The notes: generated by a model from the letters alone, not told the origin. A DNA stretch of 64,000 bases from Elusimicrobiota bacterium (GCA_016721625.1 JADKHR010000001.1:1967225-2031224); one strand, 5' to 3'. Positions 3,927 to 58,011 are shown, numbered from the stretch's first letter. Numbers and translations: made by a program.

Positions 3927-5354
3927 ATGAAAAGAGAAATTATCGCCAACGTTTTACCGGAAGAAACGCGGATCGCCGTTTTAGAGGAAGGGCATCTGGC
4001 GGAGTTCATGATCGAGCGCCCCGCGCTCGGCATGGCGAAACTGGTGGGCAACATCTACAAGGGGCGGCTGGAAAACGTTCTTCCCGGCATCTCCAGCGCC
4101 TTCGTGAGCACGGGGTTCGAAAAAAACGCCTACCTGTACGTGACGGACGTCGTCAGTTCGTCAAAGGACCGCCACATCGAGAAGATGCTCCGGCGGGGGG
4201 AAGAGCTGATGGTTCAGGTGGCCAAGGAAGCCATCAGCACCAAGGGGATGAAAGTGACCATGGACATTTCCATTCCAGGCCGCTATCTGATCTACATGCC
4301 GAAAAGCGAACACGTGGGCGTCTCCAAAAACATCGAGGACACCGAGGAGCGGGAACGACTGCGGCGCATCATTGACGAGGGGAATTTGCCGGGCGGCATG
4401 ATCGTCCGCACCGAAGCCGAGGGCGCCGACGAGGGCGAGCTGAAGGCCGAAATGAAATATTTGGCCAAACTGTGGGAAACCATTCAAAGGAAATACGAGA
4501 GTTCCCAACCCGGCACCTTGATCCACCGAGAACTGGGCCTGACGTTTCAGGTGGCGCGGGACCTGTTGACCAACGACGCGGCGATTTTTTTGATCGACGA
4601 CAAGGAGGAATACAAAGACGTCAAAAAGTTCGTGGAAACCCTGGCGCCGGAGTTCGCCGACCGCGTCCAGCACTACACCGGGAAAACGCCGATTTTCCAA
4701 GCCTTCGGCGTGGACCGAGAGTTGTCCCACATCCGCCAGCAAAGGATCGATCTCCCCTCGGGCGGTTACATCATCATCCAGGAGGCCGAGTCCCTCTGCG
4801 CCATCGACGTCAACACCGGCAAATTCGTCGGCCACAAATCCCAGGAAGAAACCGTCACGGCCACCAACCTGGAAGCCGCCGAGGAAGTGGCCAAACAGCT
4901 CCGGATCCGAAACATCGGCGGCATCATCGTGATCGATTTCATCGACATGCGGAGGAAACGGAACCAAATCAAAGTGGTGGAGGTCTTGGAGGAAGCCACG
5001 CGGAACGACCGGGCGAAAATTAAAATCCTACCCATCACGCGCCTGGGCTTAGTCGAGATGACCCGGGAACGCCGCCGGGAATCGCTGTTGTCCCTTCTCT
5101 CCGAACCCTGCGCCGAATGTGCCGGTTCGGGCAACGTCCTCTCCCGGGAGTCGATGTACCTAAAACTCCAGAAAGAAATCTTGGAAATGACCCAAGGCCG
5201 CTCGGAAGGCCGTCTCCAAATCACGCTCCCGCCCATCGTGGGCGACTTCGTCCGCGAACGCCAAGACCGCCTGGAAAAAATCATCAAACGCCCGCTCACC
5301 ATCGCCATCGACCCCACCCTCCCCTGGGAAGACTACCGCATCGTGATTGATTGA
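3927..5354 (+). CDS. rng: ribonuclease G (RNase E/G family)
   Basis: ATG at 3927 preceded by GGGAG ribosome-binding site; 475 aa; N-terminus MKREIIANVLPEETRIAVLEEG... typical of RNase E/G catalytic domain; size fits RNase G; the upstream 440 aa of ORF 2610..5354 is an out-of-frame shadow of rodA. Confidence 0.85.
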   Translation: MKREIIANVLPEETRIAVLEEGHLAEFMIERPALGMAKLVGNIYKGRLENVLPGISSAFVSTGFEKNAYLYVTDVVSSSKDRHIEKMLRRGEELMVQVAKEAISTKGMKVTMDISIPGRYLIYMPKSEHVGVSKNIEDTEERERLRRIIDEGNLPGGMIVRTEAEGADEGELKAEMKYLAKLWETIQRKYESSQPGTLIHRELGLTFQVARDLLTNDAAIFLIDDKEEYKDVKKFVETLAPEFADRVQHYTGKTPIFQAFGVDRELSHIRQQRIDLPSGGYIIIQEAESLCAIDVNTGKFVGHKSQEETVTATNLEAAEEVAKQLRIRNIGGIIVIDFIDMRRKRNQIKVVEVLEEATRNDRAKIKILPITRLGLVEMTRERRRESLLSLLSEPCAECAGSGNVLSRESMYLKLQKEILEMTQGRSEGRLQITLPPIVGDFVRERQDRLEKIIKRPLTIAIDPTLPWEDYRIVID

Positions 5355-5382
5355 CCGGGATCATAGGCGATTTTTTATGTCG

Positions 5383-5863
5383 AATAGGGGACGGTGATAA
5401 CTTTATAACTTAAAGAAGTTTTCATCCAACCGTCTTTCTTCTCGAAGAATGGCTTTTGATAACGTCGGTGGAAAAAGGAGAGAATTTGTTGGATTTCCGT
5501 GGCGGGGAATCCCATTTTTTCCCTTCCGACAAATACAACCAAATCCCTTCCACTGCGAGAATCGTCCGGGCTCAATGCTTCGGACGATGACGTCGTATAA
5601 CCCTCCAGGAACACGGAGACGTGGCTGGCGCGGCATTTTGGAAATAATAGAAATTCGTGTCTCTTTAGCCGCTTGGTTCATCCGATGACGCATGCATTTT
5701 GTAGTGGCCCCATGGAGGGGGCCACCTTTTTCCAGGACAAGGTCTTCTGACGGAAAATCGCCCGATAAATCGGGCCACTACAAAAATCGCTTCAGAGCGC
5801 TAAACTGACACAGAAATTCAATGGAGGGGGCCACTAAGTTATTAAATTATCACCGTCCTATTT
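5383..5863. mobile_element. MITE-like non-coding element bounded by ~28-bp imperfect terminal inverted repeats
   Basis: Left end aataggggacggtgataactttataactt (5383-5411) is the near reverse complement of right end aagttattaaattatcaccgtcctattt (5836-5863), sharing a 10-bp identical core ACGGTGATAA; internal 10-bp inverted pair gtagtggccc (5701-5710) / gggccactac (5772-5781) and 14-bp direct repeat atggagggggccac (5712-5725, 5821-5834); no protein-like ORF inside. Confidence 0.35.
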
Positions 5864-6185
5864 CTCTGCAACCGGCCATATGGTAGTATGTACCATGGTG
5901 GTTTGTGCGTTTTAAAACGGCCGGTTATTTTATCGCCCGGGACGTTTGATTTTTTTATTTGCACACCAACTGGGACGTTATCGGCGTGTGGGCTTGGTTA
6001 TGGAAAGTCAGGCGGCGCGGTTTGGCCGGCGTTACCGACAGGAATGGCCAGGTTTCAATTGGCTTCATTCTTAACATTTTTCCTTAAGAGCGAGTCATTG
6101 TGTTGCATGTAAGGAAACCGACAGGACAAAATTGTTTCATTGCTTTTTCTTCCTTTTGGGGTTATGCTCAATGAGGGGGTCATAA

Positions 6186-7910
6186 ATGCATACGTTATCG
6201 AATCGCTTTCGAGGTTCTTTTTGGAGGGGTATCGGGGTGTTGGGCGGGGGTATTCTGCTCGCTTTCCCGGTGCGGGCCGATTTATTTGAAACGATTGATT
6301 TTACCGGAACGGGCGCCGGGTATGACATGACCGCGGCTTCTTTTTCCTTCTTAAGCCTTCATGGCGCGGTTCAAGCGGGCGATATAAACGGAGACCAGTT
6401 AGCCGACGTCGTTATTCTGGCCGACGGCCGTGTCCAGGCGAACGATTTTCAAACCCCAGGGGGATGGATTCCTCCGACCCATTACCTGTACAATCCAATT
6501 AATCTCGCCGTCGCTGGCTCAAGTTCGCCCAACGTTTTGGCTGGGATTGTGGGAGCTCCCAACTCCACCTTTATCCAATATACCGGAGGGGACCTGGCCT
6601 GGTACCAAAACAATGGAAACGGGTATTTCGAACCTTGTTTTGTTAACCTCAACACCGGCAATCCCCCCGAAATTTACAACGGAAAAAATCTTCAAGTGGC
6701 GGATTTGGATGGCGACTCAGACAACGATATCGTTGTTTGGGCCAGTATGGAAACAACACAACCGACTTCGCTCTCGGCGCCGGGCGAGTGGCTTGGTTTG
6801 AAAGCATTCCTTTGACGACCAATAAAATACAGTTCAAACAATTCAATGCTGTTGATCCATGGAACACCCCAGGGCATTTTTCAGTGGGCTTAACTAGTTA
6901 CAGTGTCGATGATACGCAGGCGGGAACCTTGGTTAACATGAACTTGGACGGTAAATTAGACTTAGCCGTTTTGGCTCATGGCGGTGCCATTTTCGGGGAA
7001 TCAGGGCTATACGTTTTTAAAAACAATGGAGCCGGACCGGGTTTGTTCAGCCAAACAGTTGGGAATGTGGCTCCCGTCATAGTGGCCGGCGCCCCTATCG
7101 CGATCGGTTCGGCATTGTTATTTCGTCCGCCGACATCGATGGCGACACCTTTCCGGATCTGGTCATTGGCGAGGATGGCCCAACCGGCGGCAATGACCAG
7201 GAATTGTTTTACTTAAAGAATCCCAGCGGGGACATTTTTAGCGGCTTACCTTTCACCAAGGTCGTGGTCCATAACCAGTTCCCCGTCTTCCGCGCGGTGA
7301 CCGTCTCCGATGTGATTCCAGGCGGGTGCCAAGAGATCATCGCCGGGGGAAATCAGACCGGCTCGCCGATTTCCATTTTTTCCGGCAGTCTTCAGGGTGG
7401 CGCGAATTGCGTTAACTGGACCCAGACCCCGCTGGCCGGAGCGAACACCTTGGGCAATATACTCGACATCCGCGTGGCCGATTTCAATAACGACGGTTTG
7501 TTGGATATCGTTGCTTTTTCGGAGAGCGCTCCGAACCCCCTCCCCACTTTGCCGGCGGGAAAAAGCACGGTGACGACCCTCTGGCTGAACTCCGGATCGC
7601 TTCCCACGAACCCGATCACGGCCTGGAGATCCATCCCCTTGGTCGAAAACGGCGCTCTTCCGGCCATGAATATCACCCGGGGGGATTGGCTGTTAGTGAT
7701 TTTGACGGAGATGGGGATATGGATGTGGTGCGGTCCCACATTGAAACCAACCTCGCCTATTTCGAAAACAACTGGAACACGGAACGCCATGTGAAAGTCA
7801 TGACCACCATCGAGAAGAAGGGGTTCGTTCAGCGAGTGGTCTCCTTTCTGTACACTTTGCCGGACCGATCCGTGGGGCGGATCCTTGGGCAAGACGTGGG
7901 TGCCCCTTGA
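6186..7910 (+). pseudogene. FG-GAP/VCBS repeat beta-propeller protein with signal peptide, interrupted by at least three frame changes
   Basis: Four consecutive ORFs (6186-6815, 6737-7216, 7204-7794, 7686-7910) in frames 0,2,1,0 each carry FG-GAP-type motifs (DINGDQLADVVI, DLDGDSDNDIVV, NMNLDGKLDLAV, ADFNNDGLLDIV, SDFDGDGDMDVV); N-terminal signal peptide MHTLSNRFRGSFWRGIGVLGGGILLAFPVRA. Confidence 0.6.
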
Positions 7911-8601
7911 AAATCCTAAACGGGAAGGGCCGCCCCCGCGGCTTTACGCTCATTGAGATGGTGGTGGCTATTTCGTTGGTTTCCATTCTTGGCCTTTTTA
8001 TTTTCAAGATGATGCGGAATTTTGTCGATGGGTTAGGCGGGGTCCAGAGATCGATCCCTTTGCAAAGGGATCTGCAAATCGCCAAATACGTCATCGAAAA
8101 AGATCTTCTCTCGGCCCGCGCCATTCCATTGGAAACGCCGTCCCCAATTGCGGTTTTGAGGAAACGCCGACAGCGATGTCAACGACTTTGCCTCCTCCCC
8201 CGGGGGGATGGACGTGCGTCCCGTACCCGCCGACGATTTCAAACTCTCAATTTTCTTACCGAATAGGGTATATCAGCGGCCGTCCGGTCTCGGTGTTGAA
8301 TGGACATTACGGGCTGATCGTCTCTTTGGATGACAACAGGCAATTTGCCGCGCAATCGGCGACGTTTTCGTTGGTGGGCCAGAATATCTACCTGTTCGGG
8401 GTGGGGATCCGGACTTATAAATCAAATATCGGTCGGGGAGCGGACTCGGTGCTTCTAGGCGATCCCGTTCCCTGGCCTCCTCTTCTTTCCTCCGCACTGG
8501 CCATCACGCTCGCTTCTCCCCGCAAACATGGGTTTATCTTGTTTCCTCCTTTACGGCTGTTGGAACTTATAATTATCGGGTTGAAGCCGGAGCGTCCCTG
8601 A
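7907..8601 (+). CDS. prepilin-type N-terminal cleavage/methylation domain protein (type IV pilin-like pseudopilin), frame-shifted
   Basis: TTG start overlapping stop of FG-GAP gene; N-terminus MKILNGKGRPRGFTLIEMVVAISLVSIL has the canonical G/FTLIE prepilin motif followed by a hydrophobic helix; reading continues in another frame (8176-8601) with protein-like composition; C-terminal extent uncertain. Confidence 0.55.
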
Positions 8602-9061
8602 CGGATTCCTTTTACCCTCGACGCCGCGCATGACGACATTGTGGTGACGCCCCTCTCGTTGGACCTAACGACGACCAATGGGGTGACTTTCGAGTTCGAT
8701 CGATTTGAGGTGAGCGGCGCCACCAGTCGACGCGTACGGATACGATATCGTTTGGCGCCTCATGGAAATAGCGGGCAGTTGATCCGGGAACGGAGGCTGG
8801 TGCCCGGCAGCCCTTGGTCATCCCAAGGGTCGCTCAACAATATCCGGCGGCTTTGGGTGGGATGGGATTTTGGCCAGCCCAGGCCTGGGATCCTACCCAG
8901 CCCTCTCCCTTTCGGATTTTTCCAGAAAGGCATGAATTTTCCGCTCGTCATCTTTTTGGAATCGGGAGAGGTGGGGCCCCGCTCGGCGGATCGGTCGCGT
9001 CTCCGTCAACCACCCGGAACGCCCTCGAGTTGGTGTTTTCCGTTTTCCGGAGGCGCCTTAA

Positions 9062-9527
9062 ATGCGGTCCCGGGCCACTTCCAAGGGGCGTTCGTTCTCG
9101 CAAAGCGGTTTCACCTTTGGCGGAGATTGTGGTTTCCGTGATCATTCTGGTGCCGGTGATGATCCTTATCCTGTCCGTCTTCACGACGTCCATTCGCTCG
9201 GTGACGGATTCCTGGGACGTCACTCAAGTCCACCGCCGTGGCCCAGCGGTTGATCGACAAAATCCGTTCCATGAGGTGGGATGAAAATTTAAGTTCGGCT
9301 TCCTCCGTTTTGGGCCCGATAGCGGTGAATCGGGTCCTGGGGATTTCGATGACGTGGACGATTGGAATAACTTCAGCTTGCCGGACTCTTTAGCCTCCTC
9401 CGTGCGTTACGGAAGGCACGTGGATGGACTACGTGACCTCAACGCTTCCGGACAAGTGGTGTCATCTACCGCCCCAACGAATTGTAAAAGGGTGACTGTC
9501 CGGGTCACCAATGTGGTAGGAAAGTGA
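9062..9527 (+). pseudogene. second pilin-like pseudopilin, multiply frame-shifted
   Basis: ATG 9062 gives MRSRATSKGRSFSQSGFTF; adjacent frame continues AEIVVSVIILVPVMILILSVF (prepilin-like G-FT-x-x-E plus hydrophobic helix); downstream frames read ...GDFDDVDDWNNFSLPDSLASSVRYG...VTVRVTNVVGK to stop near 9525-9527. Confidence 0.4.
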
Positions 9528-10442
9528 CAGTCCTTTCCGTTCTCATCGTGAATACTTAGGATTGGCCATGAAAAAATCGATCCCTCAAGCATCAAAAAAA
9601 GCCGGGGCGGCGATCTTAATGATCGTGTTCTTGCTTTTAATCCTGTTGCCCTAACCATGATCCTCGTCAAATGGAGCGCCCTTCACCTGCGAGGAAGCAA
9701 CCGGGGCCGTATTCACATGGACGAATATTATTCCGGAATCACCGCTACCAACGCGGCACTCCTTAGTGCCAATAGCTGGACCTGGGATAATACACTACCC
9801 CAAACCAACAGCCAAGTTTTTTTGGGTAGCGGAACGGTGATTTCTGTGCAAATAACCCATGTCGGGACCCCCTAATCGGTACCCATTATCCGGGTTAACC
9901 CGAAAGGTGCAGTTGGTTCGCGGGAGTTGAAATTTGAGATGCGGTTCCTGTCGCGTCCCACCCATCGGGAACCAGTGCAATCTGCGTCGCCTATGGCGGT
10001 CGTTTTACTGTAAAATTGTCGACATGCGTAACAGATCGCTGTCGTTTCGAAAAAGGCGGGCCTTCCTGTCCGGCTCCCTTGAGTTTTCCGAACCTTTTAA
10101 ATCCAGAACCTATGGGCCCCTCTAAGAGGGTTCGTCCGTCTGATTCGAAGGCGGCGGGCCCCGCCGCTGATCGAATCCATTTTGTCGAGGCGGGGGGAGT
10201 GGCCGGCGTGCGGAAGACCTGCGAGGTTCGGCTGGACGACCTGCCTCCGGCGGCCCGGCGCGGGGTGCGGCACGCTTTTGCCTCATCCAGGGGGCGGGGC
10301 CTGGGCCGGGACCTGAAAACATGCCGTCTCTCTCCACCGCGGAGGCGAGGGATCCGGGACGTCCTTTTGGACGAAGCCTCGGTGCCTCTGGCCGCCCGGC
10401 CCTTGGTGAGATACCTTTCCCAACGCGCTTCCCCGGCTCGGC

Positions 10443-57939: not shown

Positions 57940-58011
57940 TCCCCGGTAGCTCAATGGTGGAGCGGTCGGCTGTTAACCGACAGGATGTTGGTTCGAGTCC
58001 AACCCGGGGAG
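57940..58011 (+). tRNA. tRNA-Asn (anticodon GTT)
   Basis: Cloverleaf folded by hand: acceptor TCCCCGG/CCGGGGA, D-arm GCTC/GAGC, anticodon stem GTCGG/CCGAC with loop CTGTTAA (anticodon GTT), T-arm GTTGG/TTCGAGT/CCAAC; CCA not encoded. Confidence 0.85.

Follow-up and report, generated by a model that had tools for sequence, protein, structure and literature searches.

The window analysed here is a stretch of 64 kb (64,000 nucleotides) from an Elusimicrobiota bacterium, and the segment under study (481 bp, positions 5383-5863) lies downstream of the RNase G gene, rng, where the G+C content falls from ca. 0.58 in rng to ca. 0.45. The closest protein on record to the rng product is 91% identical, and the named best matches are all from Elusimicrobiota. 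We compared this region with seven orthologous loci (L019-L026), in which RNase G is 87-91% identical and the gene order is mreC-mreD-PBP2-rodA-rng, then (emfourin)-marR-like-peptidase M4. The gap between rng and the marR-like and peptidase M4 genes in these relatives is of 0.05-0.9 kb, with the emfourin gene either present or absent; there is no counterpart of the segment downstream of their rng genes, and none of the seven loci contains the repeat that bounds it. Nucleotide similarity to the window ends at 5354-5357 and resumes at 11924, leaving a lineage-specific block of 6.6 kb (5355-11923) between rng and the marR-like and peptidase M4 genes. Besides the segment, which marks its left edge, this block contains an FG-GAP repeat protein gene split over three reading frames (6186-7794) and probably a pseudogene, a prepilin-type N-methyl ORF (7907-8266), an emfourin homologue (ca. 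10109-10438) and a PLD-like gene (10443-11501).

An earlier note on this DNA had described the segment as a MITE-like, non-coding element with imperfect terminal inverted repeats. An inverted-repeat search did locate two terminal arms of 24 nt (5389-5412 and 5835-5858), which are 92% complementary and separated by a gap of 422 nt. They are not a product of chance, as a degenerate 24-nt pattern spanning both arms had no match in the 64 kb besides these two sites, even at a tolerance of three mismatches, and matched in none of 100 shuffled sequences. The 481-bp element as a whole occurs once in the 64-kb window. The consensus of the repeat family to which these arms belong (20 copies, see below) refined their limits to 5385-5413 and 5834-5860; hereafter, we designate them the gene-3′ and the gene-5′ terminal inverted repeat (TIR), respectively. 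The minus strand of the gene-3′ TIR reads TTAAGTTATAAAGTTATCACCGTCCCCTA and its GGGGACG tip, at 5387-5393 in plus-strand coordinates, is intact. The minus strand of the gene-5′ TIR reads TAGGACGGTGATAATTTAATAACTTAG, with 27 nt instead of 29 because the conserved GGGG run is cut to GG. This run is GGGG in 18 of the 20 copies of the repeat, with AGGG in one (L003, minus strand) and GG only in the gene-5′ arm of the window. No target-site duplication was evident at the ends of the element, whose flanks (..tgtcgaa and tttctct..) have no direct repeat in common.

The internal repeats listed in the earlier note are likewise real. The perfect 10-bp inverted pair lies within a longer perfect pair of 14 bp, TTTTGTAGTGGCCC (5697-5710) and GGGCCACTACAAAA (5772-5785), that can be extended to 26-nt arms with 81% complementarity. 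The perfect 14-nt direct repeat, ATGGAGGGGGCCAC, is found on the plus strand at 5712-5725, where it forms the 3′ half of a plus-strand hairpin, and at 5821-5834, where it abuts the gene-5′ TIR; there is no third copy anywhere in the 64-kb window.

A scan of one genome per species with GGACGGTGATAANTTNATAAC identified five loci, which belong to two Elusimicrobiota MAGs, and two unrelated single matches. In locus L006, from MAG EBPR_ori4bin.9, the motif is inverted at both ends of an ORF of 332 aa (511-1509) starting MPRQPRLHVPGGLYHV. The same arrangement, with the repeat inverted at both ends, occurs in L015, L016/L017 and L018, and the proteins of this group are 69-100% identical to that of L006 (69-77% for those of L015-L018). 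The 20 copies of the repeat, from nine loci of related Elusimicrobiota, yield a consensus of ca. 29 nt, wTAGGGGACGnTGATAAtTTaATAACTTAA (in short form, wTAGGGGACGnTGAT...ATAACTTAA), and there are three to four strict matches per genome. Its position with respect to the gene is also conserved: the gene-5′ repeat leads straight into a promoter with a TTGAC sequence (-35) and a TAATAT-like box about 17-18 nt later, whereas the gene-3′ repeat encodes the last two codons of the gene (KL) and its stop. Six of the seven elements have 60-62 nt between the repeat tip and the ATG, and the remaining one has 68 nt. Other Elusimicrobia and Chlamydiota have genes whose products are ca. 50% identical and which are likewise framed by inverted repeats of this type, of 29-40 nt, that start with (TA)GGGGACG and end in TTGAC. 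The termini are therefore conserved, and the refuting condition named in the earlier note, a lack of such conservation, does not apply. The invariant part across the whole repeat family is the GGGGACG tip. A separate scan of JGI metagenomes with a 19-base TIR pattern retrieved seven loci, all without the TAGGGG prefix and the CTTAA suffix, that we discarded as chance matches.

The L006 protein matches the Pfam family Y1_Tnp (E = 9.7e-11) and, at its C-terminus, the helix-turn-helix (HTH) family Bac_DnaA_C (32.3 bits, with a cutoff of 31.5). It also matches the NCBIfam model for the REP-associated tyrosine transposases (NF047646, E = 1.3e-21), where its 77.1 bits fall just under the 80-bit cutoff, and does not match the NCBIfam IS200 model NF033573 (E = 0.15). 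Residues H60 and H62, which form the HUH motif, and Y119 are invariant in 15 aligned homologues. More than 7000 homologues, of about 334 aa, were found in Elusimicrobiota, Omnitrophota, Chlamydiota, Desulfobacterales and others, and some are labelled at their source as 'REP element-mobilizing transposase RayT' or as transposase. A search with the single protein sequence found nothing in the PDB, and a profile of the family gave a weak match to DnaA domain IV among known structures (E = 0.004). Units of this kind have been described previously: Di Nocera, De Gregorio and Rocco (2013) defined TIRtrons as RAYT-like genes, designated TIRYTs, that are flanked by TIRs and not by REPs (PMC3733652). 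A TIRYT is a TIR-associated Y1 (HUH) tyrosine transposase, with a RAYT-like catalytic domain and a C-terminal HTH similar to DnaA domain IV.

The segment itself retains parts of such a gene. With the 332-aa protein of L006 as query, tblastn found only two significant matches in the whole window, both on the minus strand, colinear and situated between the TIRs, where this strand reads MPRQPRLRVPGGLYDV; there is no other TIRYT-like sequence in the 64 kb. The first match (5571-5636, minus strand) is the N-terminus, aa 1-22, with sequence MPRQPRLRVPGGLYDVIVRSIE, 77% identity (E = 1e-5) and a start codon at 5636-5634; its identity rises to 82% with P0002 and P0004. The second (5474-5548, minus strand), RDLVVFVGREKMGFPATEIQQILSF, corresponds to aa 285-309 of 332, in the DnaA-C-like HTH, with 56% identity (E = 9e-5), its best match being P0004 (70% over 20 aa), and aligns to the same Bac_DnaA_C-type domain that is present in the L006 protein. 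The two remnants are separated by a deletion junction (5549-5570, minus strand) from which codons ca. 23-284 are absent, that is, about 790 bp that take in the HUH motif (H60, H62) and the catalytic Tyr119. After the HTH remnant there is a degenerate, frameshifted tail of the C-terminal domain (5414-5473, minus strand), the HTH and the final KL* being in different frames: a 96-aa ORF (5403-5693) ends in FFKL*, and the HTH remnant sits in the frame of the ORF at 5375-5614. As in intact elements, the stop codon (5403-5405) and the last codons of the remnant ORF lie within the gene-3′ TIR. The window copy therefore keeps the first 22 codons and about 25-48 of the C-terminal ones, having lost about 80% of the gene, and its alignment with the 1.09-kb element of L006 shows an internal deletion. 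At 22 and 25 aa the remnants are short, and their identity is persuasive because of their colinearity, their orientation and their position with respect to the TIRs, and not for the E-values alone. Because they are so short, scans of the three longest ORFs of the segment with Pfam and NCBIfam gave no matches, and the homology becomes visible only when an intact relative is used as query. The description of the segment as non-coding thus holds only in half, since its minus strand carries remnants of a transposase-like gene.

Both termini and both gene remnants are homologous to those of intact TIRtrons, and on these grounds we consider it very probable that the segment is a decayed, internally deleted and non-autonomous copy of a TIRtron, in which a TIRYT gene was framed by TIRs of ca. 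29 nt. The HUH motif and the catalytic tyrosine, both present in the intact relatives, are not encoded by the window copy, which is therefore a TIRtron remnant and not a functional member of the class.

By analogy with RAYT/TnpA(REP) and with the Y1 enzymes of IS200/IS605, the TIRYT enzyme would recognise the repeats, with the GGGGACG tip as their invariant part, and would use Tyr119 and the HUH metal site to nick and rejoin single-stranded DNA, leaving no target-site duplication. The HUH Y1 chemistry of IS200/IS605 is not expected to produce such duplications, and their absence from the window element fits this chemistry, without proving it. In a short derivative, the two inverted repeats could pair in single-stranded DNA to form one long hairpin, as in REPINs, and doublets or deletion derivatives might be mobilised in trans. 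A full-length copy would have landed, or been duplicated, just downstream of rng in the lineage of the window only; its arrival could be due to duplication or recombination instead of transposition. The loss of codons ca. 23-284 would then have followed, together with a frameshift, the gain of a foreign leader of about 160 nt that contains two facing terminator-like hairpins, and a 2-nt loss in the GGGG tip of one of the repeats. In its present state the copy could at best be mobilised in trans, if another locus of the genome encodes a TIRYT, and is most likely inert, because it encodes no enzyme and one of its tips is damaged.

The architecture of the elements described here matches that of the published TIRtrons. 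Many published TIRs share the motif GGGGWSAS; the TIRs keep a similar distance to the gene, overlap its 3′ end in some cases, and occur as single, dimeric or grouped repeats in modest numbers (PMC3733652). Additionally, Quentin et al. (2018) placed most TIRYTs in subclass 2.1, with members of 2.1.2 having Bac_DnaA_C, HTH_23 or HTH_28 C-termini (PMC6006769). Likewise, the proteins of our relatives are Y1 HUH proteins longer than classical RAYTs, with a C-terminal HTH of the Bac_DnaA_C type, and their genes are framed by long inverted repeats (L006, L015, L016 and L018, and the arms in the window) and not by REP-type palindromes. The distance between repeat and gene is constant in the intact relatives, the gene-3′ repeat overlaps the end of the gene, also in the window, and the repeats are single, dimeric or grouped, with a low copy number. 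The tip, GGGGACGG, agrees with GGGGWSAS in seven of eight positions (G for A), although one of the window arms has only GG. The differences are that the window contains only the wreck of a TIRtron, which has lost some 80% of its gene and has a 5′ distance of 222 nt; that the host is here an Elusimicrobiota bacterium, the published TIRYT examples numbering 26; and that two of the observations, a -35 box at the gene-5′ repeat and a stop codon in the gene-3′ repeat, come from the present analysis. Similarity to IS200/IS605 is confined to the catalytic domain, which belongs to Pfam Y1_Tnp: the ends of those elements are asymmetric subterminal hairpins without TIRs, whereas TIRs are present here, and the match to NF033573 has an E-value of only 0.15.

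Two other properties of the repeat were considered. A weak hairpin formed by a single TIR (GTGAT/ATAAC) was ruled out, because the predicted minimum free energy (MFE) is 0 and the first position of the putative stem can be A, C, G or T without compensation; the single repeat has, therefore, no self-structure, and its consensus begins TAGGGGACG, without a GTAG tag. The TTATCAC sequence contained in the repeat was considered as a DnaA-box-like site (TTATNCACA) for the DnaA-C-like HTH. This does not hold in general, since the homologues with ca. 50% identity have TIRs that do not conserve TGATAA. In agreement, Quentin et al. found the TIR consensus to be unlike a DnaA box (PMC6006769).

The window copy also differs in its leader, which runs from the gene-5′ TIR to the ATG (5637-5833, minus strand). 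Its tip-to-ATG distance is 222 nt, whereas intact elements have 60-62 nt (six cases) or 68 nt (one case); with ca. 62 nt as reference, the window leader has about 160 extra nucleotides, and the TIRtron model gives no account of their origin. They include the second copy of the 14-nt direct repeat and a nested palindromic unit of 89 nt (5697-5785) with a perfect 14-bp outer stem and two facing, GC-rich, terminator-like hairpins, which folds better than shuffled sequences (z = -3.9). The plus-strand hairpin (5704-5725) is followed by CTTTTT and preceded by GTAG (tagged span 5701-5725), and the minus-strand hairpin (5775-5760) is followed by GATTTT and also preceded by GTAG (tagged span 5785-5760). 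These GTAG-tagged hairpins, examined for a REP-type tag, are unique to the window element, and the inner hairpin motif, GTAGTGGCCC, has no further copy in the window, nor in related loci totalling 227 kb.

Gene-less elements also occur among the relatives. L001, L003 and L004 contain doublets of 87-100 bp, made of two facing repeats, that can form long hairpins in single-stranded DNA (z = -5.5 to -9.3); they show no consistent target-site duplication, and none has an interior like that of the window element. In each of these three doublets, one arm has G at the variable position of GACG[N]TGAT and its partner has T or A, and the predicted single-stranded hairpin therefore always contains one mismatch there; in full-length elements, the two arms can either agree or differ at this position.

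REPIN/RAYT systems are reportedly dealt with by Nunvar in 2010, by Bertels and Rainey in 2011 and by Ton-Hoang in 2012. As in these systems, also called REPtrons and known from Pseudomonas and Enterobacteria (PMC3116915, PMC8266576), one Y1 gene lies between inverted repeats, gene-less inverted doublets can form long single-stranded hairpins (L001, L003 and L004), and a master gene appears at a conserved chromosomal position across genomes, suggesting vertical inheritance. In contrast, a REP unit is an imperfect palindrome with a tag, whereas the TIR alone forms no hairpin (MFE 0) and has no GTAG or GTGG tag; there are a handful of copies per genome here, and not hundreds; and the protein has an extra HTH domain and reaches 77.1 bits against the 80 of the NCBIfam RAYT model. 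In a broader and, to our judgement, unlikely reading, the TIRYT/TIR system of Elusimicrobiota would be a living, low-copy analogue of REPIN-RAYT, with doublets arising by internal deletion of secondary TIRtrons, the window element as an intermediate between the 1.09-kb and the ca. 90-bp forms, and its nested pair of GTAG-tagged hairpins as a REP-type substrate inserted in a TIR-type element. If true, a REP-type substrate inside a TIR-type element would point to cross-talk between two Y1 systems.

That the segment is a true MITE, belonging to an amplified family of short non-autonomous elements moved in trans and inserted recently as a unit of 481 bp, appears improbable to us. It is, as DDE-derived MITEs are, a short and TIR-bounded element without an intact gene, and a non-autonomous internal-deletion derivative of a gene-carrying element; gene-less TIR doublets do exist in related genomes, and the element is absent from the orthologous locus in seven relatives. 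Nevertheless, it lacks a second copy in the window, its interior is unmatched in all the related loci examined (227 kb), and no other copy of the 481-bp type was found in species-representative genomes or in JGI metagenomes; none of the loci from the species-representative scan has two matches spaced about 446 bp apart, as the window does. Moreover, there is no target-site duplication, the short doublets of the relatives have a different interior, the partner enzyme would be an HUH Y1 protein and not a DDE transposase, and there is no sign that this derivative was amplified. The damaged tip, the frameshift and the foreign DNA in the interior form a pattern typical of decay in place. The designation MITE-like is thus correct for a small, non-autonomous element with genuine, conserved TIRs, and membership in a classical MITE family is not supported.

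We consider very improbable that the segment is a structured non-coding RNA, or a regulatory or terminator module for rng and the downstream FG-GAP and prepilin genes, whose repeats would serve RNA structure and not DNA mobility. The two facing hairpins at 5704-5725 (plus strand) and 5775-5760 (minus strand) are indeed terminator-like, and may terminate read-through from rng as a side effect; in addition, the inner region folds somewhat better on its minus strand than shuffled sequences do (z = -3.4), although the plus strand only reaches z = -1.7. However, terminator-like sites are not enriched in the region (four versus 1.6 +/- 1.2 expected). A search of the window against Rfam at the gathering level only identified a tRNA-Asn at 57940 and, with a permissive threshold, the best hit near the element (E = 0.86) was outside it. 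The outer repeats are accounted for by their homology to the ends of TIRtrons, there is no counterpart downstream of rng in the relatives, and no homologues of the inner part that could be used for covariation were found in the 227 kb. The strong folding of the whole unit as single-stranded DNA (z = -7.2) occurs because the two TIRs pair with each other, so that the only strong fold signal is that of the DNA repeats, and the suggestion of a structured RNA locus made in the earlier note was not upheld. Finally, a coincidental palindrome in an AT-rich intergenic spacer has only the single occurrence of the element in the window in its favour and is next to impossible, given that no matches are expected by chance in shuffled sequences and that related genomes contain 20 copies of the 29-nt sequence, whose placement relative to a homologous gene never varies.

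As a TIRtron remnant, the window element is probably one dead copy of an already described class, ordinary and of little importance by itself. It illustrates, nonetheless, that new sites in the chromosome do receive TIRtron copies, which are then eroded by internal deletion, and gene-less TIR doublets could arise by this route. Also of use is the architecture common to elements from several phyla, with a GGGGACG tip, a fixed distance of ca. 62 nt to the ATG, one repeat whose inner edge carries the -35 box and another that includes the stop codon. The literature that we searched contained no report of biochemistry (binding, cutting or moving of the repeats) on any TIRYT, and this conserved architecture offers concrete substrates for the first biochemical test of one of these enzymes.

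The chromosomal context of the intact elements was also compared. The TIRtrons of L006 (449-1525) and L018 (105-1181), whose proteins are 77% identical, are both directly upstream of an rsmD-like methyltransferase gene (MSMRVQSG...), and L016/L017 have a downstream spacer similar to that of L006 and L018. A site shared by at least two genomes suggests a conserved chromosomal position and a vertically inherited master copy, which therefore looks more like a vertically inherited, domesticated gene than like an active transposon; the rsmD-like gene was not found in the 64-kb window. RAYTs have likewise been described as single-copy and vertically inherited (PMC5581495), and the likeness is a caution against supposing that transposition is frequent.

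The gene-3′ end, comprising the last ca. 25 nt of the gene and the repeat, is present as tandem direct copies, 53-91 nt apart, in L006 (1501-1590), L016/L017 (L016 2276-2355) and L007 (2582-2705), and L007 has these two gene-3′ ends alone, without a gene. Next to the TIR copies of L006 (157-400) and L007 (2767-3070) are genes for tRNA-Ala(GGC) and tRNA-Gly(UCC), respectively, each followed by at least two repeated tRNA 3′ ends that look like integration scars of tRNA-targeting elements. Additional GGGGACG tips are located 13-15 nt outside the gene-5′ repeat in L001 (3420/3434), L027 (1425/1440) and L031 (1420/1433), and L003 has an inverted tip 48 nt outside this repeat (position 1305), with a background of 0.7 GGGGAC per kb. 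These extra tips may have been left by cleavage and rejoining, or may serve as an auxiliary recognition site. The window contains, 17 nt outside its intact arm (start at 5385), the sequence ATAGGCGA (5360-5368), which resembles the tip ATAGGGGA in seven of eight positions and may be due to chance or represent a degenerate extra tip such as those of L001, L027 and L031.
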